From: Patescibacteria group bacterium
GTDB taxonomy: Bacteria; Patescibacteriota; WWE3; UBA101185; UBA10185
Assembly: GCA_022710505.1 (NCBI GenBank)
Contig: JAKLGS010000001.1
Coordinates: 1-30,919 of the forward strand
Length of the DNA stretch: 30,919 nt
Direction of reading: 5' to 3'
In this document: one piece after another, positions 11,132 through 27,167 of the stretch
Position numbering within the stretch: the stretch's first letter is position 1
Layout: each line of letters starts with the position of its first letter
Notes under the pieces: model-generated
Told to the model about the DNA's origin: nothing
Database searches by the model: none
The model's input: only the letters and a program-made list of their open reading frames with translations
Program-made: the position numbers and the translations under genes

Positions 11132-11141
11132 TGAAAAAACT

Positions 11142-11179
11142 TAAGGGCTAGTTGAATTTTTTTATTCATCCAGCCCTTA
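11142..11179. terminator. Hairpin after the deaminase remnant
   Basis: TAAGGGCT / AGCCCTTA outer stem and TGAAT / ATTCA inner stem. Confidence 0.6.
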
Positions 11180-11198
11180 TTATTCAGTTTTATTGGAT

Positions 11199-11390
11199 TT
11201 ATTCCTCGTAAAGTATAAAAATTACTATCCAAGGTCCGCGAACAGCAGTTTTAAAATCTAATATTTTCAATTTTTCCCCCATTTTTTGAAACCACAGGTT
11301 CATTTCCTCTTCAACGATTTGGTTCTGGGTACCCTCTTCATTCACGCCGTCGATACCCAAAAATACACTGAAAGTTTTCACTCGTTTCAT
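11199..11390 (-). CDS. 63-aa Cse60-like small protein
   Basis: AGGAG SD; VKTF...VEEEMNLWF...IFILYEE pattern. Confidence 0.65.
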   Translation of the reverse strand: MKRVKTFSVFLGIDGVNEEGTQNQIVEEEMNLWFQKMGEKLKILDFKTAVRGPWIVIFILYEE

Positions 11391-11411
11391 TTATTTCTCC
11401 TTCTTCAATTA

Positions 11412-12560
11412 TCAATTATTTAGATTATCCCATACATCGATAGCTTTATCTAGACTCGAGTAAAAATCTTGTCCTATAATATCTGAAACCCCATCTTTTT
11501 TTGCTTTTAACCATTCTTTGGTGTCTTTGAGGAAAAAAATGACTTCTTCTGCAGGATAGTTTAGATTATTCAAAGCCATTGCTATTCTTACTATTCTGCA
11601 TTTTATACATGACCCGCACTGAGATGGGTTTTGAAGTATAAAATTTGGTGTCTTTTCTAGCCACTTTTTTCTCAAGTTCTTTCTTGCAAAAGGAGGAGAG
11701 AAGCAATTTGAAATCGTTGGAACTGATCGTGGCCAATATTTTATCAAGTCAGCTAAACATTCGACATCGTCGGCATCTTCCCACTCGACTTTTATCGGAC
11801 TACCAATCAGTTCTTCGATTTTTTTGTTATAAAGTTTCCATGACGATTCGGTCTCAGTAAATTGATAATTTTGATCTTGTTTCCCCATGTTACCTTCAAT
11901 AACTATCCTTGAAGCACCAAATTCCAGTGCAATTGGAATTATCAAGGAGGTTATAAACATGTCTCTCGATCTCATAACTGACTTACCTGAAATTCTGCTA
12001 CCATTTTTCAGTTTAACAATTTTCAGTTGCGGAAAATCACGAAGCGTTTTTCTTTGTGCCAGAGTATCTTTTTCTTCTTGTGCGGATACGCTTCTATTTA
12101 TACCTGCAATATGAACGGCTAGAACGTTATCTATTCCCAAAGATTTGGTCATTCTCCATACGTTCCATAAAGAATCTTTACCTCCAGAGAATGCTACCAC
12201 GGCTTTTCTGTCAGTTAGTTTGTACTCTAGCAGATTTGGTGTGGTTTCTTGCTCAATATCAAAATACTTAATCTTTGGGATAGCTCTTTTATTGAATGCG
12301 TACATCGCTTGTACAATCTCAAATACCTCTGGAATCAGAAGAAAATTTATCCTAATAACATTTGGAAAAGAATTTGCGACAAGATGCATCAGACCGAAAT
12401 TCTTAAATAAGCTTCTAGAAAGAGTGTTATTAGGGTATTCAATGTAAGCAACATCAAGATTGTTACTGGGTTTTACAATACTTAATGATTGTGTTTCATC
12501 ATCGTCAACCATTCTCAACGAATACTCATTAGATAGTATCGTTACCTCTTTATTTTCCAT
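11412..12560 (-). CDS. QueC-like PP-loop ATPase with Zn-binding C-terminus and N-terminal extension
   Basis: AVVAFSGGKDS PP-loop, SRDMF (QueC RN-like), SNCF...CGSCIKCR; AGGAG SD. Confidence 0.75.
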   Translation of the reverse strand: MENKEVTILSNEYSLRMVDDDETQSLSIVKPSNNLDVAYIEYPNNTLSRSLFKNFGLMHLVANSFPNVIRINFLLIPEVFEIVQAMYAFNKRAIPKIKYFDIEQETTPNLLEYKLTDRKAVVAFSGGKDSLWNVWRMTKSLGIDNVLAVHIAGINRSVSAQEEKDTLAQRKTLRDFPQLKIVKLKNGSRISGKSVMRSRDMFITSLIIPIALEFGASRIVIEGNMGKQDQNYQFTETESSWKLYNKKIEELIGSPIKVEWEDADDVECLADLIKYWPRSVPTISNCFSPPFARKNLRKKWLEKTPNFILQNPSQCGSCIKCRIVRIAMALNNLNYPAEEVIFFLKDTKEWLKAKKDGVSDIIGQDFYSSLDKAIDVWDNLNN

Positions 12561-12592
12561 TTTCTCTCCTTTATATTTAATTTTTTTTATTA

Positions 12593-13117
12593 TTGTTCAC
12601 GATTTTACTTTTAAAGGGTTGTTATGTCAAAAGTAACAGAATTGAATATTTTCTAAACCACGAAGAGGGCACTTGCATAAAACCCTATAGTGTTGCCAAA
12701 AAGAACGAATTGGCGTACCTAGAAAGTTCCAAGTACGTAAGGGAGCTGTTACCTCTCGAATACGGCGAGACGGTGGACGGGGGCCAGGAATATTGGACTC
12801 CTGTAATTTCCGATCGGAGCGAGGGTCTTTTGGAAGATTTGCGTCTCACTCCTTTCGTTAGGCAGCTCAAAGAAACCTCTCCGTTCATCGAAATTGTAAT
12901 GATGGAACTCTCAGGAGAGGCGAACAACGAGGGTTCGTTTTCAATTGAGAGTAGTAAGCCTTTGCAGCTTCCTTCTCCAAACCTCCAGATTTTAGAGAAG
13001 GAGTTCGGTTGCGAAGTCTACATAGAGGGGAAAAAGTTAACTGTCTGCTTTAAAAATTTGGAAAGGGATTACCGAGAGGTGATTGCCTTCAAAGCAGGGG
13101 TTATCCTTATGTCATAA
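12593..13117 (+). CDS. Hypothetical protein; start uncertain
   Basis: 174-aa ORF with TTG start; weak similarity to 14455-15132. Confidence 0.6.
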   Translation: MFTILLLKGCYVKSNRIEYFLNHEEGTCIKPYSVAKKNELAYLESSKYVRELLPLEYGETVDGGQEYWTPVISDRSEGLLEDLRLTPFVRQLKETSPFIEIVMMELSGEANNEGSFSIESSKPLQLPSPNLQILEKEFGCEVYIEGKKLTVCFKNLERDYREVIAFKAGVILMS

Positions 13118-13130
13118 AATGCATGTTAAG

Positions 13131-13175
13131 ATGGGACCCAACACATATAAATTTTATGTAGCGGGTCCTTTTTTT
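13131..13175 (+). terminator. Conserved hairpin plus T-tract, copy 1
   Basis: GGACCC..ACATA / TATGT..GGGTCC then T7; 35/40 identical to 15152-15191. Confidence 0.75.
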
Positions 13176-13342
13176 GTTTTTCTGATAACATAATTACAAA
13201 ATATTTGTAATTTGATAATATTAGTTATGTATGCATAAAAGAATTTGCAATCTCGTGAATAGAATTAATTTTGGTAGGAGATTTGTGATAATATTTTTTC
13301 TACTTTTTTTCACTTACGCAATTATCTAATCACCGTAATAAC

Positions 13343-14332
13343 TTAATCAATCTCGAACTCAATCTTCTCACTTTTTGCACTCGTGCCGTACTTGTCGTAT
13401 GCTTTAGCATAAAATTCGTAATCACCGTCGTCACTTCTGAATAAATATATGTAGTTATCGTTGTAATTTATTGAGTCTCCCTTATAACAGACTTTGACTT
13501 CTTCTAATCCTTTTTTCATCCTTACGTCGTAAAGATATTTATCTCCAGCCATTATAAAAATGTATCCTTCAGAAAATCCGCAAGATGACTTTGTCGTATC
13601 AAATTTTTTGTAATGTCTGTAAGTGTATCCAATGTCATTGTCATCGTATTTATCCTCTAGATAGTCAGAAGCAATGTTTATCCCTCTATCACCTTCTCCA
13701 GGATCCCATCCCTCTGTATCTTTATCATAAAGTGCTCGGTATTGAACAGTTTTTTCTTTTTCCCCATTTATATAGAATTCTACATAAGATATTCCACCAA
13801 TATTATCCTCTGCGGTTAGCGATAGATTTATGGGGTCATCCTCCGAAAATGTTCTGTCTTTGTATCCCCAAGATGTTAGTTTTATTGACGGCTTATCATT
13901 ATTTTCAGGAATTGCTTTTTCTGGTTCAGATACCTTTTCTTCGATTATGGGAGTCTCTTTATTAACAGTTATATCCGGTTGATTTTTTACGGTTGTTTCA
14001 GTAGTACTTGGTTTGGTGGTTTCTGTGCTATTCGATTGTGAAAGGAGTGTACCGAAGGCATTTTGTGAATTTGATGCTTCATCTAAATTTTCTATAATCT
14101 CTTTATTTTTACCCATGTTTACTAATTTTTTTGTTTTATCGAAAATTAAAAATTTGTAGGTAAAAAATCCTAATGTTATAAAAAATACAAGTCCTAAGAA
14201 TAGTGATAGCCATTTGAAATTCGTGGCTTTACGGGGTTTTTCTGGTTCAACAGTGTTATTAGTATCAATGATGTCTGTCGTTTTGTTAGTAATATCGATA
14301 TTATCCATTTTATTTATTATACAACTTACCAA
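13343..14332 (-). CDS. Membrane-anchored extracellular protein with Ig-like domain
   Basis: TM, Thr/Glu-rich linker, LSLTAEDNIGGISYVEFYING ... YEFYAKAYDKYG. Confidence 0.7.
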   Translation of the reverse strand: MVSCIINKMDNIDITNKTTDIIDTNNTVEPEKPRKATNFKWLSLFLGLVFFITLGFFTYKFLIFDKTKKLVNMGKNKEIIENLDEASNSQNAFGTLLSQSNSTETTKPSTTETTVKNQPDITVNKETPIIEEKVSEPEKAIPENNDKPSIKLTSWGYKDRTFSEDDPINLSLTAEDNIGGISYVEFYINGEKEKTVQYRALYDKDTEGWDPGEGDRGINIASDYLEDKYDDNDIGYTYRHYKKFDTTKSSCGFSEGYIFIMAGDKYLYDVRMKKGLEEVKVCYKGDSINYNDNYIYLFRSDDGDYEFYAKAYDKYGTSAKSEKIEFEID

Positions 14333-14454
14333 CCGTAGTGGGTTGGTTGTACGGATTCACTAGTTGCAATAGAACCCATAGTGTGTTATTATTTTGCTAA
14401 ATACTTAATCACTCTTCAAAATAAAGAGTGTCCAAAGGATCACCAAGAGGAAAA

Positions 14455-15132
14455 ATGGAAAGAAACAAAGAAGATTTTGAAAATTTTTGTCAATTTGTCT
14501 GCGAATACAGGGAAGAGATGACCAAAATTCTGGTTCTACAGAACGGGGGAGTTGTTGTCACCGGAATAATTTCATGTGTCGAAAAACTAAAGCCTGCAGT
14601 AATTAAGGCTTTAGAAAAGGCGCGCAAAGAATATCTTATGGGCTATAGTTATCAAGGCAATAAGATTGCATTCTGGCGCACCGGTGAAGAGGGGACTTTT
14701 GATCCTTATACAGAGGAGGGTATTATGGATTTTAGAGATCCTCCGGACGAAGATTTTTTAGATGAGGTACAACGTGCCTTGTCGCAGTCCCAATTTATCG
14801 AGGTAATTGTGGACCACCTAGAGGGTTACAGTATCCCAGATAAACTTACCATAAAGGTGGGAAATACACCAGGAGAGCCCCCTTTCATAAAAAATAAGGA
14901 GGTTTGGATGGTGAGTGTATCTCCTAAGGGGGTAATTTATAATCTTGATACACCCTTTATAGGAGATCTGAGAGGAGATTTGAATAGTGCCTCTCTTAAG
15001 TTTCTAGAGTCTTACTCACCACCTTGGGTTGACTTTTTCGTCGATACCGTCGAAGTGAGCATACCGGAATGTCCCTCCGCGATGCTTTTCGAAATGGCGG
15101 GTAAAACTGCCAGGATATTCATGGGCTGTTAG
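14455..15132 (+). CDS. Hypothetical protein
   Basis: ATG 14455 after AGAGG; 225 aa. Confidence 0.7.
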   Translation: MERNKEDFENFCQFVCEYREEMTKILVLQNGGVVVTGIISCVEKLKPAVIKALEKARKEYLMGYSYQGNKIAFWRTGEEGTFDPYTEEGIMDFRDPPDEDFLDEVQRALSQSQFIEVIVDHLEGYSIPDKLTIKVGNTPGEPPFIKNKEVWMVSVSPKGVIYNLDTPFIGDLRGDLNSASLKFLESYSPPWVDFFVDTVEVSIPECPSAMLFEMAGKTARIFMGC

Positions 15133-15151
15133 TAGAAAATTTTTTTCAAAA

Positions 15152-15198
15152 ATGGGACCCAATACATATTTATTTTATGTAAAGGGTCCTTATTTTTT
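15152..15198 (+). terminator. Conserved hairpin plus T-tract, copy 2
   Basis: Near-identical to 13131-13170. Confidence 0.7.
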
Positions 15199-15397
15199 TA
15201 ATTTAAAAATAAAATTACTAAATATTTTTATAAAAATTTAGAAGATGCATATTATTTAAGGTAAAAAAAGGTTATTTTTAAGATTACTGACGAGATTGGA
15301 TAGTTAATAAGAAAGGATCAGTTCATACCTTATTTCCAACCAGAATTTTATTACCAAGAAATATTGAAAAAGCTAGAACATAACTTATACTAATTTT

Positions 15398-16426
15398 ATG
15401 CAAGGTGGCTTTAATATTTTAGAAGTTACAGGTGATTACACACAGGTTGGTAGTGCCATAGGTAAGAAATTTAAAGATACCGTCCAGAAAAGAATTCAAC
15501 TTAGGCGCGAAAAAATTCCAAACTACTCATCATATTTAGATCGATGCCAAGAATATTTCTAAATTACGCAAAAAAAAATTTCCCCACTTGGTTGATGAAT
15601 TAGTCGCAATAGCCACTTGTGCCGAGGTACCCGTAATGGAGTACTTTTTTCACAACAATCGAGATTTGTATGATTTTTTTTGTAACGAAAAAGGAAAAAA
15701 AATACAAACATTTCATCTGCAGGATTATCCGATCACTGTACTGTTGCTGTTTCTTTTAATGAGGATGGTGCAATTATAGGGTACAATGAGGATTGGCTTT
15801 TGTCAGCAGTTGCCGATTATTATTTATTAAAAGCAGAAATTAACGGTATTAAATTTATAACTTTAGCCGCAAAGACACTGCTCGCAGGAGATTCCGCGGG
15901 CATGAATACTTTTGGTCTATGTCAATGTATCAATGAATTGCATTCGGAATCGAAGGTAGGTGTCCCAAAAAATTTCGTGGCACGGGCTATTTTGGAAAGT
16001 AAATCGTTAAATGCCGCTGAGGAGCTTATTAGAAATACCCCCAAGGCCAGTGGTTTTAACCACGTGTTAGTTCAGGGCCACGAGGTAAGAAATGTAGAAA
16101 TTGCTGGAGCAAAAATAGGGGTTTCAAGTTATATAAATCAGCCTTTTGTACACACTAATCATTATCTTTCACCTGCTTTACAAAAATTCGAAAATTTCAA
16201 AACTATTAATTCTGTTGAGAGGTATGAAAGGGCTTCACATCTTACAAATATGGGTATGACTGTAAAAGATATGATATTGCTTCTACAAGATCACCGGAAC
16301 GAAGAAAATCCCATATGTAGTCATGATTTTACACTAGGAGCTCTTGTTTTTGATCTGCCCAAAAAGGAAGCATATGTTTGCTACGGTACTCCCTGTAAAG
16401 GTATTTTTAATAAATATTATCTGTAG
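15398..16426 (+). pseudogene. Disrupted C45-family (isopenicillin N acyltransferase-like Ntn) hydrolase
   Basis: ATG 15398; in-frame TAA 15560; middle segment FPHLVDELVAIA is in another frame; DHCT...YNEDW and HTNHY are in the 15800 frame; frame changes fall near A9 (15570-15578) and A8 (15695-15702). Confidence 0.8.
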
Positions 16427-16587
16427 TAGTTACTATGAAAAACTAACTGTCTTGTGTAAGGTTCCGTAGCGAATTTCAGCTAAATACCTAGGCTGTAGTT
16501 ATTAGTAGAACTGTTTAAGCAATAATTAATTGACGATATTTATATAAATATTCAAAAAAATGCATCACTCTGATAAACTTTCAAGAA

Positions 16588-16926
16588 GTGCGTTCAAAAA
16601 AACACTATCTCCAAAACAAAGAAATTTCCAGAGATATCATTTTAGAGGGTCTTAAATCCTTTTGTGAGTTTTATGGTGTTAGATATTGTAAGCTAGCTAT
16701 AAGAAATCAAAAAACGAAATGGGGAAGTTGTTCCAAATCCGGTAATTTGAACTTTAACTACATAGTTGCTTTCTTGCCTAAAGAGCAAAGAGACTACATT
16801 ATTGCTCACGAAGTATGCCACTTAACTGAGTTTAATCATTCAAAAAGATTTTGGGATGCGGTCGGAAAAACAATTCCAAATTACAGAGAAATTAGAAAAG
16901 AAATTAAATCTATTAGAATTTACTAA
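16588..16926 (+). CDS. YgjP/DUF45-like (M48/SprT-type) metal-dependent hydrolase, short form
   Basis: RNQKTKWGSCS..GNLNFN, AHEVCH (HExxH), NHSKRFW. Confidence 0.88.
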   Translation: MRSKKHYLQNKEISRDIILEGLKSFCEFYGVRYCKLAIRNQKTKWGSCSKSGNLNFNYIVAFLPKEQRDYIIAHEVCHLTEFNHSKRFWDAVGKTIPNYREIRKEIKSIRIY

Positions 16927-17099
16927 AATTTTCTAAAAAGGAGTTCGTTTATTATCTTTAGTAATAAAAAATCCCTCTCAGTTTTATTGGGTGGGGAGGG
17001 GGGAAATTAAATTTATTTTGTGTTTATGTAATTCTTGGGGTCGCTTACAGGTTAGTAATAGAACTGTATGTGCTATAAAAAAATTTTTAGTAAAAAAGA

Positions 17100-17146
17100 A
17101 AACCGCCTTGGGGGATTGTGTTTATCACACTCCCTTACAGCGGTTT
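17100..17146. terminator. Terminator-like hairpin downstream of the 91-aa ORF
   Basis: AAACCGC / GCGGTTT outer stem with an inner GC-rich stem; upstream A-rich run gives a U-rich tail on the minus strand. Confidence 0.55.
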
Positions 17147-17169
17147 GTTAAGTACTAGATCGAAAAGGT

Positions 17170-17445
17170 TTAGTCGCAAAGACGAGCTGTTACCCCGATC
17201 ACATAACATGAGTCTTTGCCAGTTTTTCCATCGTATCCTGGAATTGGTGCTTCCGTGATTTGTTTAAATGCTTCGGAGACCCTGGTGGTCATTTTGGATC
17301 TACTTACTGGGTTCACCCCGTCGTAATTTTTCTTCCACCAATTGTGAAAGCTTCTCCAAGCTTTCTTGATTTCTGGTGGGTACAACTTATGAACGTCATC
17401 CGTTATCGGAATTCCATATGGTGGTACACCCATCCCACTGCACAT
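17170..17445 (-). CDS. Hypothetical 91-aa protein
   Basis: Strong SD AAGGAGG, consensus promoter and terminator. Confidence 0.75.
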   Translation of the reverse strand: MCSGMGVPPYGIPITDDVHKLYPPEIKKAWRSFHNWWKKNYDGVNPVSRSKMTTRVSEAFKQITEAPIPGYDGKTGKDSCYVIGVTARLCD

Positions 17446-17481
17446 CGTAAACCTCCTTTTGGTTTTAGTTGATTGGCTGGA

Positions 17482-17510
17482 ATTATAGCTTAACGTGCCT
17501 TTTGTGTCAA
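17482..17510 (-). promoter_or_regulatory. Perfect sigma70 consensus promoter
   Basis: Minus strand TTGACA-N17-TATAAT. Confidence 0.85.
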
Positions 17511-17524
17511 ATACTACAGGATAC

Positions 17525-17546
17525 TTGGGGTGGTTGACGGGTCTCG
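17525..17546 (-). repeat. att core copy (tRNA-His 3' end duplicate)
   Basis: TTGGGGTGGTTGACGGGTCTCG identical to 24961-24982. Confidence 0.95.
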
Positions 17547-17659
17547 GTCACGCGTCTTAACATCTTGTATATCGCTTCGCTCACACAATCTGTAAAGCTC
17601 GCGACCCCATCTCCTTCGCTCATTTCATTCGCTCAGTCCGATATTCTCGCCCCGTCAAC
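17533..17659 (-). other. Branched hairpin module fused to the att copy
   Basis: GTTGACGGG / CCCGTCAAC closing stem; GGUCGCG/CGUGACC stem; three TGAGCGAA motifs on the minus strand. Confidence 0.7.
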
Positions 17660-17873
17660 AAGAAAGTCCGTTAACCACACAAGGTGATTATCCGACTTCC
17701 TGGGGTCGCTAATGGATGCTAACTTGAACCACTTATTCAGAGATTTCAAGGTTCTAACTGAGTTAATTTCATATATCTAACTACTTATTTTGGGTTACAT
17801 TGGAGAGACAGAAAAGTATTCCGCGTATATTATTTACTCTTTTTAGATAATGCCATTAATTTTTAACTGATGT

Positions 17874-18248
17874 TTATTTTATTGGGTATGTGTTAATACA
17901 GTTAGTCATAAATTTAGTTTTAAATGCTGCTGTAGTTGGATCGTTTGATTCGTCATACACTCCGTCGTAACTGAACGTGATTGCTTGTTGTGTATTACAT
18001 ATCCCCGTGTAAGGGCAACCTTTAATCATTTTACTTATGATATCGAGCATTTCTTTTTGCTTTTTATCATACTTTGATAGGCAGTATCTAGTTGCTTCTT
18101 CTTTTTTATTTTCCTTTTCTTTAAGTAATAACTCTTGCTTTTTTTCCTCTGCTTTTCTTGGGGAGTAAATTACCAGGTAGAAGAAGAAAGAACTAGCTAA
18201 CATGAGAGCAGATATTGAAAGTATGACTATTAAAAACTTATCCTTCAT
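17874..18248 (-). CDS. Hypothetical membrane-anchored cargo protein
   Basis: N-terminal TM, charged coil, four Cys. Confidence 0.7.
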   Translation of the reverse strand: MKDKFLIVILSISALMLASSFFFYLVIYSPRKAEEKKQELLLKEKENKKEEATRYCLSKYDKKQKEMLDIISKMIKGCPYTGICNTQQAITFSYDGVYDESNDPTTAAFKTKFMTNCINTYPIK

Positions 18249-18426
18249 TTGTTGAACAAATTATACCTAATATAGTTAGTTAAAACCAATTAAAAAGTCT
18301 ACCTCCTACAAAATTTCTTATAATTTAGCAGGGTTAAGTTTTTATACATACCTTTTATCTCTTAACAACAACAAATAATCAGGGGTTAAATTGGCGAAAA
18401 ATTTTTATAAATGCTATGTATATGTT

Positions 18427-18876
18427 ATGGAAAATGAATACAACATCACACTTGAAGATATAGAACATATTATTGGATCAAAGGAAAAGACATTATTTTA
18501 CCTTACTTGGTTGAAACATAATAGAAACGGAACGAGGGCATATATGGAATTACACCCGGAAGTCAAAGAAAGTAGTGCGAGGGTATTGGCTTCAAACTTA
18601 TTAAGTACCATAGATATTAACCTTATTGCCGATTGTTACGGATTAAATCATCAGAAGTATTACGAGATGTTACAGGCTGGATTAGAAGCAGAAAAGAGGG
18701 ACCAATATACAGGTGAGATGTATCCGGACCATCAAACGAGATTAAAATACCTCGATAAGTTGGGAAAGTTGCTTCGAATTGAAAGGGAAAAAGAGCAACA
18801 AAAAGATGAAGACTTAAAGACAGAAGCATTTAAAACAATTGAACTTATGAGAGCAGAGTATAACTTGGAAGAGTAA
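18427..18876 (+). CDS. Small terminase subunit-like HTH protein
   Basis: FYLTWLKHNRNGTRAYMELHP...SARVLASNLLS and PDHQTRLKYLDKLGKL resemble TerS patterns; ATG 18427 preferred over TTG 18391. Confidence 0.6.
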   Translation: MENEYNITLEDIEHIIGSKEKTLFYLTWLKHNRNGTRAYMELHPEVKESSARVLASNLLSTIDINLIADCYGLNHQKYYEMLQAGLEAEKRDQYTGEMYPDHQTRLKYLDKLGKLLRIEREKEQQKDEDLKTEAFKTIELMRAEYNLEE

Positions 18877-19116
18877 CTATGAGATGGAATTTGGTAGATA
18901 TTTGGCACTTTTTAACTCTCATTTGCTTTTCAAAAACTCTTTTTATAGTAGTTTAATAAGTAACGAAAAAAACCCGAAATAGCAACCGATTTATGTTGTA
19001 ACCACGCGGGTTGCAGAAAAAACCTAAGAGTGTTATATATAAAATAATGAAACAATAACAGGCACAATACGGCTTGTTGACAATAATAATCGTTCATTGT
19101 GGGAACGTGTTCGCTA

Positions 19117-19151
19117 ACTTCTACCCGACCACAACGGGTAGAGGTTTTTTT
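19117..19151 (+). terminator. Intrinsic terminator upstream of the replication genes
   Basis: 11-bp stem (one G-U) followed by a T-run. Confidence 0.7.
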
Positions 19152-19183
19152 GTATTTTAACAAATTAAAAAGGAGAAAGTATT

Positions 19184-19408
19184 ATGCAAGGTAGAAAAGT
19201 ATCTGAATATGTAATGCAGAAATACATTACGGAGTACAAAGATTTTATAGGAAGAAAAAGAGCTGATTTTATACACAAAGCCTATGGAAACGACATATGT
19301 AAGTTTGCAGAATTAGGGTATGACACGAATAGCTTTTTTAACGACCTGTTACAAGGAAAGGAATTAAAATATGACGTGGAAAACACCAATACCACCAGAC
19401 TTAAATAA
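19184..19408 (+). CDS. Hypothetical 74-aa protein (possible regulator or directionality factor)
   Basis: SD AAGGAG; first gene of the replication module. Confidence 0.6.
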   Translation: MQGRKVSEYVMQKYITEYKDFIGRKRADFIHKAYGNDICKFAELGYDTNSFFNDLLQGKELKYDVENTNTTRLK

Positions 19409-19949
19409 GATATTTGGAAGTGATTACCTATCACAACTTATATTTGAAAGGTTACTCATAAGATCCCGGAACGAAAGCGGGGTTGCTACTAACTATTGGT
19501 ACACACCGGTAACTCTTAATAAGGGACAAGCCGTATGCGGTCTGTCAGAGTTGGGTAGATTTTTTGCGGTGGATAGAAAAACAATCAAAAGACACCTTGA
19601 AAAACTACAAAATGAGTACAAGGTAGTGGACTACCTACCAACCCGAAAAGGTACGATAGCAACAATAAAAAACTATGGTGGGTTAATAAAAATGGACTGC
19701 TGTGTGGACTACCCTAAAGATGAGAAAAGGGACTACCCACCACCGATAGAAAAGGTTGTTGTTAGTACAACGGCGGGGAACTCGTTACAAAAAAGGGACT
19801 ACCCTAAAAGTAACAAATGGGACACTAACAAGAATATAAATACAAATAATAGTAAATCTTTTAAGGGTAAGAAAAGTTATTCATTTATTCCGTATGTTTT
19901 AGGTGATTTGACACCGGAACAACAGAGAAGAAAGGTAGAGTTTATATGA
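19371..19949 (+). CDS. Phage-type replication initiator (wHTH)
   Basis: LNKGQAVCGLSELGRFFAVDRKTIKRHLEKL and GTIATIKNY; TNKNIN-type tail; internal iterons; overlaps the helicase start. Confidence 0.75.
   Translation: MTWKTPIPPDLNKIFGSDYLSQLIFERLLIRSRNESGVATNYWYTPVTLNKGQAVCGLSELGRFFAVDRKTIKRHLEKLQNEYKVVDYLPTRKGTIATIKNYGGLIKMDCCVDYPKDEKRDYPPPIEKVVVSTTAGNSLQKRDYPKSNKWDTNKNINTNNSKSFKGKKSYSFIPYVLGDLTPEQQRRKVEFI
19626..19890 (+). repeat. Probable origin: four GGACTACC(C) iterons plus an AT-rich tract
   Basis: GGACTACC at 19628, 19706, 19730 and 19796; AT-rich from about 19826. Confidence 0.65.
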
Positions 19950-20887
19950 AACTATCAAAGCAAGAGATACAAGAAAGGAACGAAGTTATTGATAGAGTAT
20001 TTAGTTTAGATGGAAATCAGTCATTTACCGGATACCCAAAAATAGATGACATATTGGGGGTTGTAGAGCCTGGCGACACAATACTTTTAGGCGGGGAAAG
20101 TGGGGTTGGAAAAAGCCTTGTAGCGTCAAACATAGCGGTAAACGTAGCCAAACAAGGTAAAAAAGTTTTATACCTTGATCTTGAAAATGGCGAAAGGACA
20201 GGCATTAAAAGGTTGTTATCAATATGGTCTGGCGTAGAGTTTAAGAAGTGGAACAACAAAGAGCATATTGAAAATGCCTACGGAATAAATCACGAGTTAT
20301 CAGAAAAGATCGAGTATTGGGATCATTTCTCACTTGAAAACCTATCAGGGTTTAGTGAAAATTCCTGGAAGACTATCATCAAATACGTCATAAGCAGAAG
20401 TGCAAACAAAGACACAAAGCCACAGTTGGTAATCATAGATCCGTTGCAAGATTTGGAAAGTGAGACCGAAAGCACAAAGACATATAACGAACAGGGGCAT
20501 ATCATTAAAGCATTGAAGAACCTTGCACAAAAGTTGAGTATTAATATCCTCATATGTCACCACCTACGAAAGCCTGGAACAACGAACAGTAGATATGTTG
20601 CCGACGTAGATGATAAGGAAGCAAGGTTGTATAGGATACCCGAAAAAGATGATTTTGAGGGATCTTCAAAGATTATAAATAAATCAATGCAAGTCTTATC
20701 AGTTGTCAGAGCCTACGAGGGTGGAACAAAAGAAAAGAGATCAAAGACAAGGGTTGAGGTATTGAAAAATAGGAATAGTCTAACAGGCGTTGGTTATCTT
20801 TATTTGAACGAAGATAACTTACGAATTGAAAATGATCCTGTGTATGTTACTGAGTATGCCGAGTTGTTAGACGGAAGATTGTTTTAG
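19946..20887 (+). CDS. DnaB-like (SF4) helicase of the element
   Basis: GGESGVGKS Walker A, LYLDLEN, VIIDPLQ, HHLRK, EGSSKI, KNR. Confidence 0.88.
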   Translation: MKLSKQEIQERNEVIDRVFSLDGNQSFTGYPKIDDILGVVEPGDTILLGGESGVGKSLVASNIAVNVAKQGKKVLYLDLENGERTGIKRLLSIWSGVEFKKWNNKEHIENAYGINHELSEKIEYWDHFSLENLSGFSENSWKTIIKYVISRSANKDTKPQLVIIDPLQDLESETESTKTYNEQGHIIKALKNLAQKLSINILICHHLRKPGTTNSRYVADVDDKEARLYRIPEKDDFEGSSKIINKSMQVLSVVRAYEGGTKEKRSKTRVEVLKNRNSLTGVGYLYLNEDNLRIENDPVYVTEYAELLDGRLF

Positions 20888-20901
20888 TTTGAGTTGTACC
20901 G

Positions 20902-20958
20902 TACCCCCGAAAATACCTTACTATTATATTTTAGGTAAAAGGGGGTATTGGTTTTTAT
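20902..20958 (+). terminator. Hairpin after the helicase
   Basis: TACCCCC / GGGGGTA and TACCT / AGGTA stems, T-rich tail. Confidence 0.5.
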
Positions 20959-21163
20959 TACAACGTATAGGGGGGTTATAAAGTAATGGGAATTTTGTCT
21001 AAAATCGGTTTTAAGGCACGTTATTATTAAAGTTAAGTTAAGATACCTTTGGGCGTGATGCCGGGTAGAATAGGGCGTTGGTTACTCATTATTTGAGAAG
21101 TTTTAAGATTAACAAACATTAACAATTTAAAGTTAAGGATTATACCATTCGGATATTAAATAA

Positions 21164-21196
21164 AGATTAAATTTAGATTAAATGTAGATTAAATGT
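21164..21196 (+). repeat. Three tandem 11-bp repeats abutting a -10 box
   Basis: AGATTAAATTT, AGATTAAATGT, AGATTAAATGT then TATAAT at 21196-21201. Confidence 0.75.
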
Positions 21197-22122
21197 ATAA
21201 TGGGTTTATGTTCAAGATTATAAGGAACACATTTTTTGTTCTTTGGAATATATGCATCCTTATATTTTCAACAACAATAATTTTTGAAGGATATATTAAA
21301 GATGAATTTAGTGTACTGATGGGGACGGTATTAGTAATAACAATACTTTTTGGGGGTTTGTCTTTTTTACTTTTTCTGATTTTCTACGAAATAAGTCTTA
21401 AGGGGTTTGATAAAAAATTATATTGGAAATCTAAATTATATTTAAAGGAGTTAGGATATTTACTAATCCCGGCATCGTTACTTTTACTTGGTTTTTACGG
21501 TCTTATCAAAAAACCTTTTATAAAGGAAACAAAACAAGAAGGAGTGGTATCTTTACGTCAAGTTGAAGAAATAAATCACGATAAATCAATAGATACCAAA
21601 ACAACTTCTGAAACTCAGCCAGTTATTAACACACCGACCCCAATATTAGAAGCTGACCCAATGGTTAACTGTGGAATACATGAAAACTGTGGTGGCGGTA
21701 CAAAACTTATGAGGGAAAGCGATTGTGAAAAAACTATATGCTGCGAAATAGGTGGTAATTGGTATTTTTATGATTCAGCTACCAAATGTGATGAAGACCA
21801 AACAGATTATTGGGAAGAATATTATGAAGATAAGTACAAAGACGATGACGAAGACGATGATTATACAATTGATATTCCGGAGTTACCGCCATTAGAACCT
21901 CTACCCCCCATAGATCTAACAATTCCTGATTATTTGATAGATGTTCCTGAGGAGAATAATGAAGAAGAGATAAAGAAGTGTGAGGAGAGGGCAAGAGAGG
22001 ATACAAAGTCTCAGATTGACGGGTGTTATATAAAATATGGGGGAACAAGCGCTGCAGATATGTGTGCCAGAGGGGTTCAGCAACTAGGTGCTGATGCTAT
22101 AAAGGCTTGTAGAGGGTTATAG
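21193..22122 (+). CDS. Membrane protein with Cys-rich and acidic extracellular regions (cargo); ATG 21208 possible
   Basis: Three N-terminal TMs, PTP linker, CGIHENC...CEKTICCEIGGNW, Asp/Glu run. Confidence 0.75.
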   Translation: MYNGFMFKIIRNTFFVLWNICILIFSTTIIFEGYIKDEFSVLMGTVLVITILFGGLSFLLFLIFYEISLKGFDKKLYWKSKLYLKELGYLLIPASLLLLGFYGLIKKPFIKETKQEGVVSLRQVEEINHDKSIDTKTTSETQPVINTPTPILEADPMVNCGIHENCGGGTKLMRESDCEKTICCEIGGNWYFYDSATKCDEDQTDYWEEYYEDKYKDDDEDDDYTIDIPELPPLEPLPPIDLTIPDYLIDVPEENNEEEIKKCEERAREDTKSQIDGCYIKYGGTSAADMCARGVQQLGADAIKACRGL

Positions 22123-22152
22123 AGTTATAAGAAAAATAGAGGAAAAACCATT

Positions 22153-22419
22153 TTGATTAATAATAAAGTACACAAGAGATTAATTACCATATTTTTATTA
22201 ATTTTATTACCCTCATTACTTACTGCTTGCACTAGCTATACACCTAATACATATGAGGAGAGTTCTGGTTACAAGGAGTATGGCTGTACCCAAGATTGCT
22301 CGGGACACAATGCTGGCTGGGAATGGGCACGTGAAAAAGGTATTACTGATCCGTCAGACTGCGGGGGTAAATCAGAATCATTCATTGAAGGTTGTAGGTC
22401 GTATGCTGAGGATTATTAG
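22153..22419 (+). CDS. Small Cys-rich lipoprotein (cargo)
   Basis: Lipobox LLTAC; CTQDCSGHNAGWEWA...SFIEGC. Confidence 0.75.
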   Translation: MINNKVHKRLITIFLLILLPSLLTACTSYTPNTYEESSGYKEYGCTQDCSGHNAGWEWAREKGITDPSDCGGKSESFIEGCRSYAEDY

Positions 22420-22446
22420 CTATAAGATTTAGTATAATGCAACTGT

Positions 22447-23187
22447 ATGAGGTCTTCCCAATCGAGCAATAATTTTAATAAATATATTAATATATTTTTT
22501 GACAAAGATATATTTAAGTTTATTACTTCAAAAGATAAAGCTTACAAATCTATTAATAAAAGAGATAAGAAAGAGGTAGGTGCATTTAAAGATAAAGCTA
22601 GACAAGACTTAAACACCCTTTTAAAAAAGAAAGGTATCCCATTATCTTGGCAAGAGCCAATATGCTCCACTATCTGGAACCCCGCCTGTATAGTCCCTAT
22701 CTATGATGGAATTCATATCGAGGTAGGTGATGAGGTAGTAACAATAGAGAAGAACATGGGTACTGATAAGAAGTATCTATTAAAAACAGAAAAGAAGAAT
22801 AGCGAAAAGAAATATAACATCGTTGTATCTAGAAACGTGACAAAAAAAGATTTCATTGACTTTATTAATACCCACTGGGAGTTTTTATCTGGCCTACAAA
22901 AAACTCTTAATCTTCCTAAAGACCCGCCTATTAGAACAAGCAAGACCCTCCACGCCATAGATGTAATTGGTATGAGGGACTTTAAAAGAAAAAGTTTTGA
23001 AGAGATTGCCACAGAAATGTTCGATTATGTTTCGAATACAGAAAATATTAACCCAACAGAGAAAAAGAGATTACTTAAAACCTTTTCATCAGGAGATAAC
23101 GTTAGAAAAAATGTCTACGAAAGATTCAAAACCGGGTTCTTAAATGACTCAATATTTGTACCAAAAAATAACCTTAAGAAAAAATAA
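22447..23187 (+). CDS. Hypothetical protein, possible C-terminal HTH regulator
   Basis: RKSFEEIATEM...DNVRKNVYERFK; TATAAT 8 nt before the ATG. Confidence 0.6.
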   Translation: MRSSQSSNNFNKYINIFFDKDIFKFITSKDKAYKSINKRDKKEVGAFKDKARQDLNTLLKKKGIPLSWQEPICSTIWNPACIVPIYDGIHIEVGDEVVTIEKNMGTDKKYLLKTEKKNSEKKYNIVVSRNVTKKDFIDFINTHWEFLSGLQKTLNLPKDPPIRTSKTLHAIDVIGMRDFKRKSFEEIATEMFDYVSNTENINPTEKKRLLKTFSSGDNVRKNVYERFKTGFLNDSIFVPKNNLKKK

Positions 23188-23383
23188 TTAGAGTCTAATA
23201 TCTGTTTTAAAGGATATTGGAATCTATGAATAGATCTTCGAGGTGTTTAAAAAAACCCATTACTATAAATAAAAGCGATGTATACGATGTTAATATTGCT
23301 ATCGATATTCTTTCAGAAATTGCACTTTTAAAATTAATGAAATTTCAAACGGCTCAGATAACAAATACAAACAAAAAATGATG

Positions 23384-23487
23384 TATAATTATCTTGTTGC
23401 CAACATAATAGGATTGTTCTTTTTAACGACCGTCTTAGGACAACTAAGAGCAATCTTTTGTTGGCAACACCTAGGGCGGTCTTTATT
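23384..23487 (+). promoter_or_regulatory. -10 box and structured leader of the recombinase gene
   Basis: TATAAT 23384-23389; 12-bp stem 23428-23439 / 23470-23481; 11-bp inverted pair 23395-23405 / 23459-23469. Confidence 0.6.
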
Positions 23488-23490
23488 ATT

Positions 23491-25119
23491 ATGAGCAAAT
23501 ATGCAATAGGGTACATTCGTGTATCCTCAGAAGAACAAATAACTAACTATTCTTTGAGTAACCAGGAAGATAAATGTAAAGATTTTTGTAAATCTAATGG
23601 ATATGAGTTACTGAGTATATTTCGTGAGGAAGGTAAATCTGCTACCACTTTAAATAGACCTGAACTAATAAATCTTCTTGAATATTGTAGAAAAAACAAG
23701 GGAAAGGTTGATGCGTGTGTGATTTATAAGATAGATAGATTATCTCGTAATACATATGATTTTCTAGAGATAAAAAGAAGATTAGCATCGTGTGGTGTTG
23801 CGGTTGTCTCCATCACAGAACCTACTGATGATTCTCCAACCGGTGAGTTTATGGAAACCATGATGGCAGCACAAGCAAGGTTTGATAACGCATTAAAAAG
23901 TGAAAGAACTAAAGAAGGTATGACAAAGAGATTAGAGGCGGGGTTACCTACTAACCCCCTTCCAGTTGGTTATAAATATCAACTTGGTGAAGACGGGAAA
24001 AACCACCCTGTTAGAGATGATCCGAAGTTTTCGCTTTTACAGCAGGCTGGATATGACTATATGACGGGGATTTATAACAAGGTTCAGATTGCTGATATTT
24101 TAAATAAGAGAGGTTTTACTACTAAGAAAAACAAGTCTGTTTGTTCACAGTTTATATCAGACTTCTTTGCAAATAAGTTCTACAAAGGTGTTATTTATTC
24201 TAAAGTTAGAAATCAGGACTATATAGGTAGTTATGAGAAGATGTTTACAGAGGAGGAGTGGTACAAAATACAGCAGATATCTAAAGGAAATCATTTATTA
24301 GCACAGCCGAGAAAAAGAAATAATCCCGATTTTCCTCTTAGACATTTTACTGTGTGTGGTAAGTGTGGGAAACCAATATCAGGTAATTGGTCAAAGGGGA
24401 GAAATAATAGATATGCTTATTATAGGTGTTTAGACCACGCCCCCTCCATTCCGGTCGAGACATTTGAATGTGAGTTCGTAGAGTTACTTGAGTCTATTAA
24501 GCCGTCTAAGGAGACTGTAGAGCGCTTCACAGAGGTATTAAAAGCTAAGTATAACGATAAGTATAGGGAACTCACAAAAGACGTATCTACTTTAAATAGG
24601 CAGTTAGAGGAGCTAAAGAATGAACAGAGAATCCTTGTTAAGAAGAATCTAAAAGGTATTTATGACGATGAGCTTTTTATGGAAAGGAATGAGGAGATAA
24701 AAGACGAGATAGTTATAAAACAGACTCGGATAAGTGAAAGCTCCATAGACAAGATTAATATTGATACTGTTTGCACATTTGCGAATCATTTTATCAACAA
24801 TATTTCACAGACATGGCGAACCGCTGATTTAGATACTAAACAAAGGCTTCAGGAGATAATATTTCCAGAGGGGGTGATTTATGACTTTCCTGGATTTCGA
24901 ACCGCCACTTTATCTTGTCTTTTCAATGTTTTAAGGGAGTCTAGCGAGTCAAATGAGCATTTGGGGTGGTTGACGGGTCTCGAACCCGCGACCTCCTCTT
25001 CCACAGAGAGGCGCTCTAACCAACTGAGCTACAACCACCGCAATTTAAAAATTCTTATCACAGAATTCTCCTGTATTTTACCAATAAATCAAGTTTTGTT
25101 GTACTACGAATTTTCCTAA
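23491..25119 (+). CDS. Large serine recombinase (integrase); ATG 23491 preferred over TTG 23458
   Basis: GYIRVSS catalytic motif, DRLSRN, recombinase domain, CGKCG...YYRC zinc ribbon, coiled coil; last 45 aa are antisense tRNA and flank. Confidence 0.93.
   Translation: MSKYAIGYIRVSSEEQITNYSLSNQEDKCKDFCKSNGYELLSIFREEGKSATTLNRPELINLLEYCRKNKGKVDACVIYKIDRLSRNTYDFLEIKRRLASCGVAVVSITEPTDDSPTGEFMETMMAAQARFDNALKSERTKEGMTKRLEAGLPTNPLPVGYKYQLGEDGKNHPVRDDPKFSLLQQAGYDYMTGIYNKVQIADILNKRGFTTKKNKSVCSQFISDFFANKFYKGVIYSKVRNQDYIGSYEKMFTEEEWYKIQQISKGNHLLAQPRKRNNPDFPLRHFTVCGKCGKPISGNWSKGRNNRYAYYRCLDHAPSIPVETFECEFVELLESIKPSKETVERFTEVLKAKYNDKYRELTKDVSTLNRQLEELKNEQRILVKKNLKGIYDDELFMERNEEIKDEIVIKQTRISESSIDKINIDTVCTFANHFINNISQTWRTADLDTKQRLQEIIFPEGVIYDFPGFRTATLSCLFNVLRESSESNEHLGWLTGLEPATSSSTERRSNQLSYNHRNLKILITEFSCILPINQVLLYYEFS
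24962..25039 (-). tRNA. tRNA-His: tRNA-His (GTG) with encoded G-1 and CCA
   Basis: Acceptor GTGGTTG/CAACCAC, anticodon arm CCTCT-CTGTGGA-AGAGG, T-arm GCGGG-TTCGAGA-CCCGT, G-1:C73. Confidence 0.97.
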
Positions 25120-25163
25120 ACTTCATCCTTTTAAAAACTTAAACTCTCTGATAATATAGTCCC

Positions 25164-25817
25164 ATGGAAATTACGTACATAGGGCACTCTTGTTTTAAAA
25201 TAAAGGATAAAACCATATCTTTGGTTATAGATCCTTATAATCCAAAAATCGGATACAAACTTCCTAAACTTTCATCTGATGTAGTTTTAGTTACTCACGA
25301 CCACTTCGATCACAATTACATAGAAGGTGTTAGTGACTACAGACTTTTGGTTGATGGTCCAGGAGAATATGAAGTCGGAGGATGTTTCATATATGGAAAA
25401 TCAGTAGATCATGATGAAAAAAATGGTGAAGAAAGAGGTAAAGTTACAATGTATCTAATTACCATCGATGATTTTAACATTTTACATTTAGGCGATTTGG
25501 GAAGAGAGTTGACCCAAGAAGAAATGGAGAGAATTCCTAATGTTGATGTTTTAATGATACCTGTAGGAAATAAATACACTATTGATGAAAAGGCCGCTGT
25601 TAAAGTAATATCGGCTTTGGAGCCTTCTTATGTTATACCAATGCATTATAAAACCGATGATCTTACTGGTGTAGAAGGTTTAAGTGGGGTAGAGGAGTTT
25701 CTTGAGGAGATGGGGGTTGGGGACGACGTTAAAAAAGATTTAGATAAATTGGTTTTAAATTCGAAAACAGATCTTGATGGAGATACTCAAGTAGTGGTTT
25801 TAAAGCCTGCTCACTAA
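25164..25817 (+). CDS. MBL-fold metallo-hydrolase (beta-lactamase B_3-like)
   Basis: GHSCF, IDPY, THDHFDH, HLGD, IPMHY. Confidence 0.92.
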   Translation: MEITYIGHSCFKIKDKTISLVIDPYNPKIGYKLPKLSSDVVLVTHDHFDHNYIEGVSDYRLLVDGPGEYEVGGCFIYGKSVDHDEKNGEERGKVTMYLITIDDFNILHLGDLGRELTQEEMERIPNVDVLMIPVGNKYTIDEKAAVKVISALEPSYVIPMHYKTDDLTGVEGLSGVEEFLEEMGVGDDVKKDLDKLVLNSKTDLDGDTQVVVLKPAH

Positions 25818-25823
25818 TATTTC

Positions 25824-27167
25824 ATGCCTGCACAATATATGAAAAATAAAAATGAAAATGATGTTGCTCACGTACCACCTCATGACGTTGAGGCTGAAAA
25901 ATCAGTTCTCGGAGCTCTTTTAATTGATAAAGATGCCATTGTAAAAGTTGTAGAATTTTTAAAGCCCAAACATTTTTACAAACCAGCACATGAAAAAATT
26001 TTTGAAGCAATCCTTACGCTATATGAAAAAAGAGAACCTGCAGATTTGATTACAGTTCCAAATCAACTTAAAAAAATGAAAGAGATTGATAATGTCGGGG
26101 GAGTTTCTTATTTAACAGAATTAGTTAACTCAGTACCTACTTCGGCCAATATTGAGGCATATGCAAACCTTATAAAAAACGATTCTATCAAAAGATCTTT
26201 GATTACTGCAGCTTCGGAAATAGGGGAATTAGTTTTTGAAGATGATGAAGTTGATAATCTTTTAGATAAATCTGAGCAACTAATTTACTCATTATCACAA
26301 GATTTAACGTATCAAGATTTTGTTCCGATAAAAGATACTTTAGAAATTACATTTGAAAGATTAGACGAACTTAGCAAGAAAAAAGGTGCGCTAAGAGGTG
26401 TTCCTACCGGTCTTAAAGGTTTGGATAAAATGTTATCAGGTCTTCAAAAAGAAAATTTAATTGTTTTGGCTGCCCGTCCTTCCGTTGGTAAAACTTCTTT
26501 AGCTTTAAATATAGCCCAGCACGCCGCCGTAGAAGGAAATTTTGGAGTGGCAATTTTTTCACTTGAAATGGGTAGGGAAATGCTTGTTGATAGGATGATT
26601 TCATCTCAAGCTGGTATTGATAACTGGAAAATATCCACAGGTAACTTGGACGAAGAAGACTTTGAAAAGTATGGAGTTGCAGCAGGAGAACTTGCTGAAG
26701 CTTCCATTTTTATTGATGATACGGCAGGAATTGGCGTTATGGAAATGAGAACCAAGGCTAGAAGACTTTTATTAGAAAACAAAATTGATTTAATTATTGT
26801 TGACTACATGCAGTTGGTTAAGGCTCCTCAAGCTGAAAGCAGAGTACAAGAGGTTTCAAAGATTTCACAAGGTTTAAAGAATTTAGCAAGAGAGCTAAAA
26901 GTACCTGTATTGGCGGTTTCCCAGCTTTCCCGTGCTGTTGAGCAAAGAGGTGGAGATAAAAAACCACAGTTATCCGACCTTAGAGATTCTGGTTCTATTG
27001 AACAGGATGCTGATATAGTTATGTTTTTGTATCGTCCTGATGAAGAAGATAGGTCAAATGCAAAACTTTTGATTTCAAAACATAGAAACGGTCCTACCGG
27101 CGAATTAGATTTGTTCTTCAGAACTGAATTTACGAAATTTTATGAGGTGGAGCAGAAAACGGAGTAG
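25824..27167 (+). CDS. dnaB: Replicative DNA helicase
   Basis: PPHDVEAEKSVLG, AARPSVGKT, FSLEM, VDYMQL, SQLSR, LRDSGSIEQDAD, KHRNGPTG. Confidence 0.97.
   Translation: MPAQYMKNKNENDVAHVPPHDVEAEKSVLGALLIDKDAIVKVVEFLKPKHFYKPAHEKIFEAILTLYEKREPADLITVPNQLKKMKEIDNVGGVSYLTELVNSVPTSANIEAYANLIKNDSIKRSLITAASEIGELVFEDDEVDNLLDKSEQLIYSLSQDLTYQDFVPIKDTLEITFERLDELSKKKGALRGVPTGLKGLDKMLSGLQKENLIVLAARPSVGKTSLALNIAQHAAVEGNFGVAIFSLEMGREMLVDRMISSQAGIDNWKISTGNLDEEDFEKYGVAAGELAEASIFIDDTAGIGVMEMRTKARRLLLENKIDLIIVDYMQLVKAPQAESRVQEVSKISQGLKNLARELKVPVLAVSQLSRAVEQRGGDKKPQLSDLRDSGSIEQDADIVMFLYRPDEEDRSNAKLLISKHRNGPTGELDLFFRTEFTKFYEVEQKTE

Follow-up and report, generated by a model that had tools for sequence, protein, structure and literature searches.

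A 7.25-kb integrative mini-replicon with an orphan small terminase at the tRNA-His gene of a Patescibacteria genome: a candidate phage satellite

Introduction

What kind of mobile element places a recombinase, a replication initiator, a helicase and a lone phage packaging gene at the end of a tRNA gene, and does it live on its own or at the expense of a phage? We address this question for a stretch of 30,919 nt from a Patescibacteria group bacterium of the WWE3 lineage (NCBI GCA_022710505.1, contig JAKLGS010000001.1, positions 1 to 30,919), hereafter the window, in which such an element lies beside the tRNA-His(GTG) gene. With 133 contigs and 90% completeness, the host genome amounts to 0.85 Mb, compared with 0.5-1.4 Mb in its relatives, which is consistent with the Candidate Phyla Radiation (CPR) type of genome named in an earlier reading of the DNA letters (hereafter the sequence-only reading). 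We conclude with high confidence that the element is an intact integrative mini-replicon of 7.25 kb, in which all open reading frames (ORFs) are open and the GC content of 34.4% equals that of the host. Whether it lives as a phage satellite is a question on which we stand evenly divided.

Results

Limits of the element and its integration site

The features that define the integration site are as follows (window coordinates).

17525..17546, minus strand: earlier copy of the 3' end of tRNA-His, from T-loop to CCA; tail of a mini-unit and no boundary of the element
17547..17700, minus strand: conserved ~120-nt block of the mini-unit, and a spacer that provides the left (B) arm of the site
17701..17706: attL core TGGGGT, the junction given by comparison with empty sites; the same core occurs in attL and attR of the contig L043
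17707..17760: P' arm of the element, beginning CGCTAATGG and containing ATGCTAACTTGA
24962..24967: attR core TGGGGT, equal to positions 71-76 of tRNA-His (ACCCCA) on the other strand
24962..25038, minus strand: tRNA-His(GTG), the intact integration target

An exact 22-nt direct repeat (17525-17546 and 24961-24982, spacing 7436), whose right copy is the 3' end of tRNA-His(GTG) from T-loop C56 to CCA+1 on the minus strand, had been read as enclosing an att-bounded unit of 7436 bp. The repeat and its spacing stand, but its two copies do not bound the mobile unit, and the left att had been placed 181 bp off. In the congeners G005 and G001, the copy of the tRNA-His tail, the conserved block and the spacer abut tRNA-His, and the element is absent. 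Specifically, L012 1501-1675 aligns with window 17526-17706 and L012 1670-3165 aligns with window 24962-26461, and the junction in G001 is identical to that from the L012 alignment. Metagenome (Logan) contigs of the public digester runs X2 and X4 likewise join ~17661 to 24960, and these empty-site-like joints occur beside element-bearing contigs, which reveals an insertion polymorphism within samples. In addition, L043 (NCBI GCA_046128295.1, a 284-kb contig), whose flanks are ~90% identical to those of the window, has another element inserted at precisely this junction, with an attL that reads TGGGGT then CGCTTAGAGG and an attR that ends in TGGGGT followed by the tRNA. The empty sites in G005 and G001 and the L043 site all keep the left 22-mer and the block. 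Because the empty sites, the metagenome joints and the L043 insertion all place the junction at TGGGGT, the mobile unit, as delimited by these alignments, is window 17707-24961 (7,255 bp), flanked by the 6-nt core TGGGGT, which lies where the tRNA-His gene has its acceptor/CCA end. The empty site that the sequence-only reading had proposed to look for does exist in G005, G001 and runs X2 and X4, at TGGGGT and not at the 22-mers.

Serine recombinases need a shared core of ~6 nt and not an identity of 22 nt, and TGGGGT appears as such a short core in attL, attR and the attB of both G005 and G001. The attP rebuilt from the P' arm and the 3' end of the recombinase gene has modest dyad symmetry, with 13 of 25 positions complementary; its centre lies just right of the core, and inverted TCAAnTnAGCAT motifs can be read in the sequence. 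The left 22-mer is best assigned to an older, gene-less mini-unit linked to the tRNA gene, and the comparisons indicate that the element is inserted between tRNA-His and this mini-unit.

It is improbable that the unit is instead 17547-24982, with exchange inside the 22-nt T-loop-to-CCA identity and with the block (17547-17666) as an end of the element. Such a delimitation draws on the exactness of the repeat and on a 4.7-kb element at tRNA-Lys of G018, whose related recombinase is accompanied by a perfect 21-nt T-loop-to-CCA repeat and no block; since long identities do occur in this recombinase clade, we keep it as a rival. However, excision at the 22-mers would take the block out, yet G005, G001, the metagenome joints and L043 retain both block and spacer. 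Moreover, the block follows at least five other tRNA genes: in the own genome, copies of ~80% identity lie behind the genes for tRNA Leu-TAG, Arg-GCG, Tyr-GTA, Pro-GGG and Leu-TAA, and at all five sites the block is followed by an exact copy of the last ~21 nt of that tRNA, with no genes between. Matches to the block occur in 13 of the 41 genomes searched, the own genome included, and the block is found in genomes without a close relative of the recombinase (none in G002, one of only 25% identity in G005). For tRNA islands this carries a caution, namely that the longest direct repeat need not be the boundary of the mobile unit, being supplied here by an older tRNA-linked mini-unit.

Serine recombinase

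The right end of the element is formed by a single gene.

23491..25119, plus strand: large serine recombinase, recognised by Pfam and PHROG; its ORF opens at 23458

The protein combines Resolvase (9e-38), Recombinase (6e-7) and Zn_ribbon_recom (3e-6) domains of Pfam with a match to PHROG 95 (1e-82), and the RVSS catalytic motif lies at its N-terminus. The full domain set with zinc ribbon, the catalytic serine and a size within 450-600 aa are those of a large serine recombinase, in agreement with the serine integrase called from the letters. Its reading frame crosses attR and runs antisense through tRNA-His. The computed length is 542 aa in the integrated form and would be 516 aa in a circle closed at TGGGGT, and the latter figure replaces the 501-aa circular form that had been derived from a junction at the 22-mer. 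As the core is placed here, the 3' end of the recombinase gene contains attP; if so, the C-terminal tail of the enzyme would differ between the integrated and the free form.

Homologues of the recombinase are found at the ends of several tRNA genes, namely His (G003, 65% identity), Lys (G018, 45-52%), Gly (G027, 38%) and Glu (G029, 35-37%). All four are convergent to the tRNA gene, and their 3' ends abut or overlap the tRNA 3' end. The literature searched does not say how frequently tRNA genes serve as targets of serine integrases. The recombinase, with a defined attB/attL/attR set at a tRNA end and with relatives that target His, Lys, Gly and Glu tRNA ends, could serve as a natural integration system in hard-to-manipulate organisms. 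The 4.7-kb tRNA-Lys element mentioned above (L034:530-5310, G018:C23) carries cargo unrelated to that of the window element.

Orphan small terminase

One gene near the left end encodes a homologue of phage small terminases (TerS).

18427..18876, plus strand: TerS homologue, 149 aa; its ORF opens at 18391

The protein is predicted to consist of a helix-turn-helix (HTH) part, an oligomerisation core with a PDHQTRLKY..LGKLL motif and a C-terminal helix. An exhaustive phmmer search yields a family of 176 representatives, and a pattern scan built on an alignment of 10 TerS sequences retrieves 13 IMG/VR contigs. In all 13 contigs the homologue (40-55% identity) lies directly upstream of an ORF of the size of a large terminase (TerL). 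In 8 contigs this ORF has a match to a reference TerL or TerL-like protein; 7 contigs have a portal match and 3 a capsid match. The TerL/portal context recurs in two of three further long contigs. In L040, a TerS homologue of 48% identity is followed by TerL (phrog_2, 4e-26), a portal and a major head protein, and in L051/L052 the homologue belongs to a prophage that also encodes a tyrosine integrase and an SU10-type portal. None of the 16 phage contigs with this TerS family holds the recombinase, the initiator or the helicase of the element.

Profile comparisons are in line with this context. Among 81 aligned family members, 11 match Terminase_2 (E<=0.001, best 9e-9) and no other family is matched; the window protein alone matches phrog_51 at 0.005. 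With the family profile, the only PDB entries at E<0.02 are chains of SF6 TerS (E 0.005-0.013), the three matches listed at a limit of E<=1. The AlphaFold2 model is confident along its whole length (pLDDT 91), and the order of its secondary-structure elements fits an HTH followed by a helical core. In BFVD, the named matches among the top eleven for this model are all small terminases, with weak E values of 0.009-0.5, and a Foldseek search of the PDB gives nothing significant, the SF6 TerS DNA-binding domain being at rank 20. Primarily because of the gene context, which is the strongest evidence, we assign the protein as a phage small terminase that stands alone in a 7-kb element. The condition that the sequence-only reading had named as refuting its TerS-like call, a lack of terminase similarity, does not apply: similarity is present in the Terminase_2 matches, in SF6 TerS and in the terS position within phages.

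Replication module

The genes next to the terminase form a compact replication module.

19184..19408, plus strand: 74-aa protein whose gene runs into the beginning of the initiator gene
19371..19949, plus strand: replication initiator, 192 aa, with a winged helix at aa 5-115; the C-terminal part is disordered, and its coding sequence carries the putative origin
19628..19858: putative origin, with iterons GGACTACC at 19628, 19706, 19730 and 19796 and an AT-rich run at 19825-19858
19946..20887, plus strand: helicase of 313 aa consisting of the DnaB C-terminal domain only, immediately after the initiator

The initiator matches PHROG 7498, a DnaD-like loader (2.8e-6). In its AlphaFold2 model the N-terminal ~110 residues form a winged helix of generic fold (VIA-align Z 7-8.6) and the remainder is disordered; the search of its profile against PDB sequences returned MarR-type noise only. 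Four 8-mer iterons with a spacing of 78/24/66 lie inside the initiator gene, followed by the AT-rich run. The initiators of L043 and of the contig L044, which are 55-61% identical, carry GGACAACC four times at the identical 78/24/66 spacing and keep the AT-rich run, and the peptide that the iterons encode changes in concert within each homologue, being DYP, DNP or DST. The concerted change of the peptide and the conserved spacing form the pattern expected if the DNA repeats are selected as initiator-binding sites. The four iterons are therefore putative binding sites of the initiator in an origin within its own gene.

The helicase matches Pfam DnaB_C (6e-21), PHROG 239 (1.6e-42) and PHROG 19 (8.8e-35), as well as TIGR03600 phage_DnaB at 9e-19, below its cut-off. 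It is 68-71% identical in L043 and L044, and single-protein scans of IMG/VR and GTDB genomes returned no relatives. Initiator homologues are rare, occurring in 4 of 89 genomes of the order; a further relative in G053 is a broken gene with no neighbours in common. The 74-aa protein has a 32%-identical counterpart in L043 and a 76-aa ORF at the same position in L044, and is possibly a regulator or a directionality factor.

The initiator had been called lambda-O-like. This holds for the layout, with iterons and an AT-rich run inside the gene, but Pfam Phage_rep_O matches neither the initiator nor its 10 homologues, one of which has a weak match to Phage_rep_org_N (0.021). The term lambda-O-like is therefore to be read as a description of layout and not of family membership.

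Cargo and other gene content

The remaining features of the element are listed below.

17874..18248, minus strand: 124-aa protein that contains cysteines and has a membrane helix at its N-terminus, no family
21155..21197: tandem repeat of 11 nt (3.9 copies) that extends into the membrane-protein start codon at 21193
21193..22122, plus strand: 309-aa multi-pass membrane protein whose outer domain is acidic and rich in Cys; cargo, no family
22153..22419, plus strand: 88-aa lipoprotein with lipobox LLTAC (PHROG 902, 3e-4)
22447..23187, plus strand: 246-aa ORFan

The membrane protein has three relatives in L043 (43%, 30% and 27% identity). The ORFan matches only itself among 5.8 billion proteins, and the Atlas gives no lead. 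No large terminase, portal, capsid or tail gene is detected in the element by Pfam, PHROGs or NCBIfam, as the sequence-only reading had stated for virion genes. None of the seven element proteins scanned with PADLOC fits a defence model, the generic ATPase matches of the helicase being the only ones, and Rfam finds two tRNAs in the window and no LOOT or other known RNA.

The 11-nt repeat is partly conserved in L043 and in the relative G001:C9, and may be regulatory or a second set of iterons. AT-rich stretches with 11-nt tandem repeats are seen at window 21125-21197, L039:3302-3347 and L043:14448-14483 and 15002-15116, in elements that have otherwise diverged.

Relatives and occurrence in metagenomes

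The sister element in L043 (8835-17527) is ~8.7 kb long and uses the same tRNA-His junction; its initiator is 55% and its helicase 68% identical to those of the window, and TerS is absent. L043 and G001:C9, which are seen in full, and L044, which is partial, are compact and have no virion genes. The core common to these relatives is the initiator-helicase pair, and both L043 and G001:C9 end in a serine recombinase.

Near-identical copies of the window element occur in several independent metagenomes. In run X3, from a digester in 2024, window 17756-24977 is covered, with 16 of 40 contigs at >=99% identity, and the flanks 16500-17441 and 25292-25900 are at zero depth. At this low coverage the pattern is a hint only; the element may reside in another host or be free in that sample.

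The metagenome-assembled genome (MAG) contains a sole phage fragment, C47 (L067, 1-10959), with a GC content of 34%, sugar-modifying enzymes, a portal, a GpA-type large terminase (phrog_675, 1e-112) and a head-morphogenesis protein into which an intein is inserted that has an endonuclease domain. A 199-aa protein of C47, considered as a relative of TerS, has no relation to the TerS family. Relatives of the TerL, portal and capsid of the L040 phage are found nowhere in the MAG.

tRNA-linked mini-units and neighbouring sequence

Gene-less mini-units of ~165 nt lie behind at least six tRNA genes, window 17525-17700 included; the others of the own genome are at C40:2046-2310, C68:25136-25380, C71:4502-5130, C4:1840-2086 and C80:1069-1340. 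Each follows the order tRNA, ~50-nt spacer, ~120-nt block ending in ...GACGCGTGAC, and exact copy of the tRNA tail (C56 to CCA). At its 5' edge the block is complementary to the tail and changes along with the tRNA, reading GTTGACGGG for His, TGACAGGAC for Pro and GAGAGAGGAC for Leu, and the Tyr site holds three mini-units in tandem. The mini-units may be an RNA, a scar or a non-autonomous element.

On the far side of the copy of the His tail, window 8773-17525 (~8.7 kb) is missing from the congener G005, and within it 8788-16526 is missing from L043. Lying beside the tail copy, this stretch has the look of a second island and carries Big_7, AAT and other genes. Window 16936-17525 (590 nt) is skipped by a contig of run X4. 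Inside this stretch, at window 17032-17064, TGGGGT is followed by CGCTTACAGGTTAGTAATAGAAC, close to the attL P' arm of the L043-type element, and this site may be a scar left when the other type of recombinase once integrated an element here.

Discussion

A phage satellite or a self-sufficient cargo element

An orphan TerS from a family of working phages, combined with a replication module and an integrase and without virion genes, speaks for a satellite. The compact, capsid-less relatives, the insertion polymorphism, the occurrence in run X3 without these flanks and the published precedents of PLEs, tycheposons and VEIMEs, introduced below, point the same way. As a satellite, the element would respond to infection or induction of a helper phage, upon which the recombinase would excise the circle, possibly assisted by the 74-aa protein or another small factor. 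The initiator would then bind the iterons and load the element's own helicase, so that the circle multiplies into concatemers. In pac phages, the pac site usually lies in or near terS. The TerS of the element would bind a pac site on the element and pass the DNA to the large terminase of the helper. PICMIs (phage-inducible chromosomal minimalist islands) are packaged as concatemers. As in these and in the marine VEIMEs (virion-encapsidated integrative mobile elements), several units of 7.25 kb would fill one helper-sized head. In a new cell, the recombinase would reinsert the element at the tRNA-His end and leave the tRNA undamaged.

Several observations weigh against a satellite life cycle. 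On its own, TerS scores 18.9 bits against the Terminase_2 (PF03592) cut-off of 26.1, and over residues 35-77, the HTH part, only. The C-terminal tail of a small terminase usually contacts the large terminase, and here this tail is not conserved with the phage homologues, the alignments stopping near residue 120-125. The nearest relatives, L043, L044 and G001:C9, are without TerS; L044, a partial element on a 5.6-kb contig, has an HTH_17 (excisionase-type) protein in its place, and the serine recombinase of L043 is only 28% identical to that of the window, at the same core. No repressor, capsid-size or interference gene is recognised in the element. In run X1 the depth of the element equals that of its flanks, and no circle junction or concatemer is seen in the Logan contigs of public runs, which cannot show rare forms. 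No helper phage is identified: C47, considered as the obvious candidate, has a GpA-type TerL unrelated to those of the TerS-family phages, has nothing else in common with these phages, and carries no such TerS. It is thus dismissed as the obvious helper, though it may be co-resident. Because L043, L044 and G001:C9 lack it, TerS is best regarded as an accessory of this member and not a hallmark of its family. Of what the sequence-only reading proposed, the set of Rep, helicase, TerS and integrase is thus borne out for this element, but not TerS for its nearest relatives.

The foremost competing account is an integrative, self-replicating cargo element that is independent of phages, either an integrated plasmid or an element like the cargo-type tycheposons; we regard it as a real possibility, though we lean against it. 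TerS would then be a passenger derived from a phage, or be re-used as a DNA-binding regulator or directionality factor, and the element would spread via natural transformation, vesicles or another route. Much of the above fits such an element, including relatives that share the initiator and the helicase as their core and lack TerS, L043 and L044 also having counterparts of the membrane protein, the excisionase-type protein of L044 at the TerS position, a cargo of membrane and secreted proteins, and the absence of an observed helper or of amplification. Tycheposons are moreover one family with cargo-type and PICI-like members (PICI, phage-inducible chromosomal island). However, the TerS of the window keeps its HTH and oligomerisation core at 40-55% identity to the terminases of working phage modules, and has no similarity to the HTH_17 protein of L044, which was considered as a relative. 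Its model is also confident over the whole length, and on this predicted structure a retained terminase function is favoured over a decaying passenger.

A temperate phage from which the structural genes were deleted would account for the phage origin of TerS, and serine integrases and DnaB-type helicases do occur in temperate phages (PHROG matches), yet such a remnant is very unlikely because L043 and G001:C9 are compact and capsid-less, as is the partial L044, and it also sits poorly with ORFs that are all open, with near-identical copies in independent metagenomes, with the lack of the element's other genes in the 16 TerS-family phage contigs and with a GC content equal to that of the host. 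The sequence-only reading had named relatives that show a full prophage as its point of failure; the relatives compared show none, and the satellite reading is not refuted on this count.

If the satellite reading is true, CPR bacteria, which are themselves host-dependent, carry phage parasites that resemble SaPIs (Staphylococcus aureus pathogenicity islands), PLEs (phage-inducible chromosomal island-like elements) and VEIMEs, and a third tier of parasitism, of a satellite on a phage on an epibiont, would exist in ultra-small bacteria. A literature search that included Patescibacteria and CPR found no report of such satellites for Patescibacteria. We tentatively propose, at a little less than even confidence, a CPR/Patescibacteria satellite lineage of a build not yet described, which would unite a lambda-style origin, a DnaB-type helicase, an orphan TerS, a recombinase gene that contains attP, and packaging of multimers by a helper TerL.

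Comparison with known systems

PICIs and SaPIs are integrated islands that depend on a phage and often have a TerS by which the packaging of the helper is redirected. The element resembles PICIs and SaPIs in combining an integrase, a replication module and TerS, a packaging gene, without a full virion set. Unlike PICIs, it uses a serine and not a tyrosine integrase and a winged-helix initiator with a helicase in place of a primase-type Rep; no master repressor is recognised, and it measures 7.25 kb versus about 10-15 kb. Membership among PICIs therefore fails on integrase type, Rep type, repressor and size.

In phage lambda the origin lies within the O gene, next to a gene for a helicase function, and has four iterons ahead of an AT-rich run. 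The window element shares with lambda O and ori-lambda the four iterons and the AT-rich run in the initiator gene, as well as an adjoining gene of helicase function. It differs from lambda in that this neighbour is the helicase itself and not a P-type loader, and in the lack of a Phage_rep_O match.

PLEs have their own replication initiator and small terminase and no capsid genes. As a matter of architecture only, the window element is like a PLE in its large serine recombinase, its own initiator, its own TerS and its lack of capsid genes. Unlike it, PLEs are ~18 kb in size, occur only with Vibrio and phage ICP1, and are not known to use tRNA ends as insertion sites.

The sequence-only reading counted a large serine recombinase among the traits of a satellite family that it did not recognise as described. 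For the recombinase this cannot be upheld, as satellites of that sort are already on record: the PLEs of Vibrio cholerae, which use a large serine recombinase, some VEIMEs and some tycheposons. In Prochlorococcus, serine recombinases are given for 27 of 937 integrase-carrying elements, mostly tycheposons. Published accounts describe PICMIs as having a reduced gene content without capsid-remodelling genes, and marine VEIMEs with serine recombinases or TerS as being packed as concatemers in virions. They further portray tycheposons and VEIMEs as tRNA-adjacent, with tandem arrays, partial tRNA copies and a PICI-like subset that carries TerS or a capsid protein.

In layout only, the window element is like the tycheposons in its site-specific integrase next to a tRNA, its replication genes and the tandem arrays with partial tRNAs. 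It is unlike tycheposons and VEIMEs in its host, and those mostly use tyrosine recombinases; an origin within the initiator gene and an attP within the integrase gene are not among the features given for them in the parts of the accounts available. By analogy, the window element appears to resemble in kind the rare tycheposons and VEIMEs with serine recombinases, and differs from them in its build, which brings a serine recombinase, an iteron-bearing initiator, a helicase and an orphan TerS together within 7 kb.

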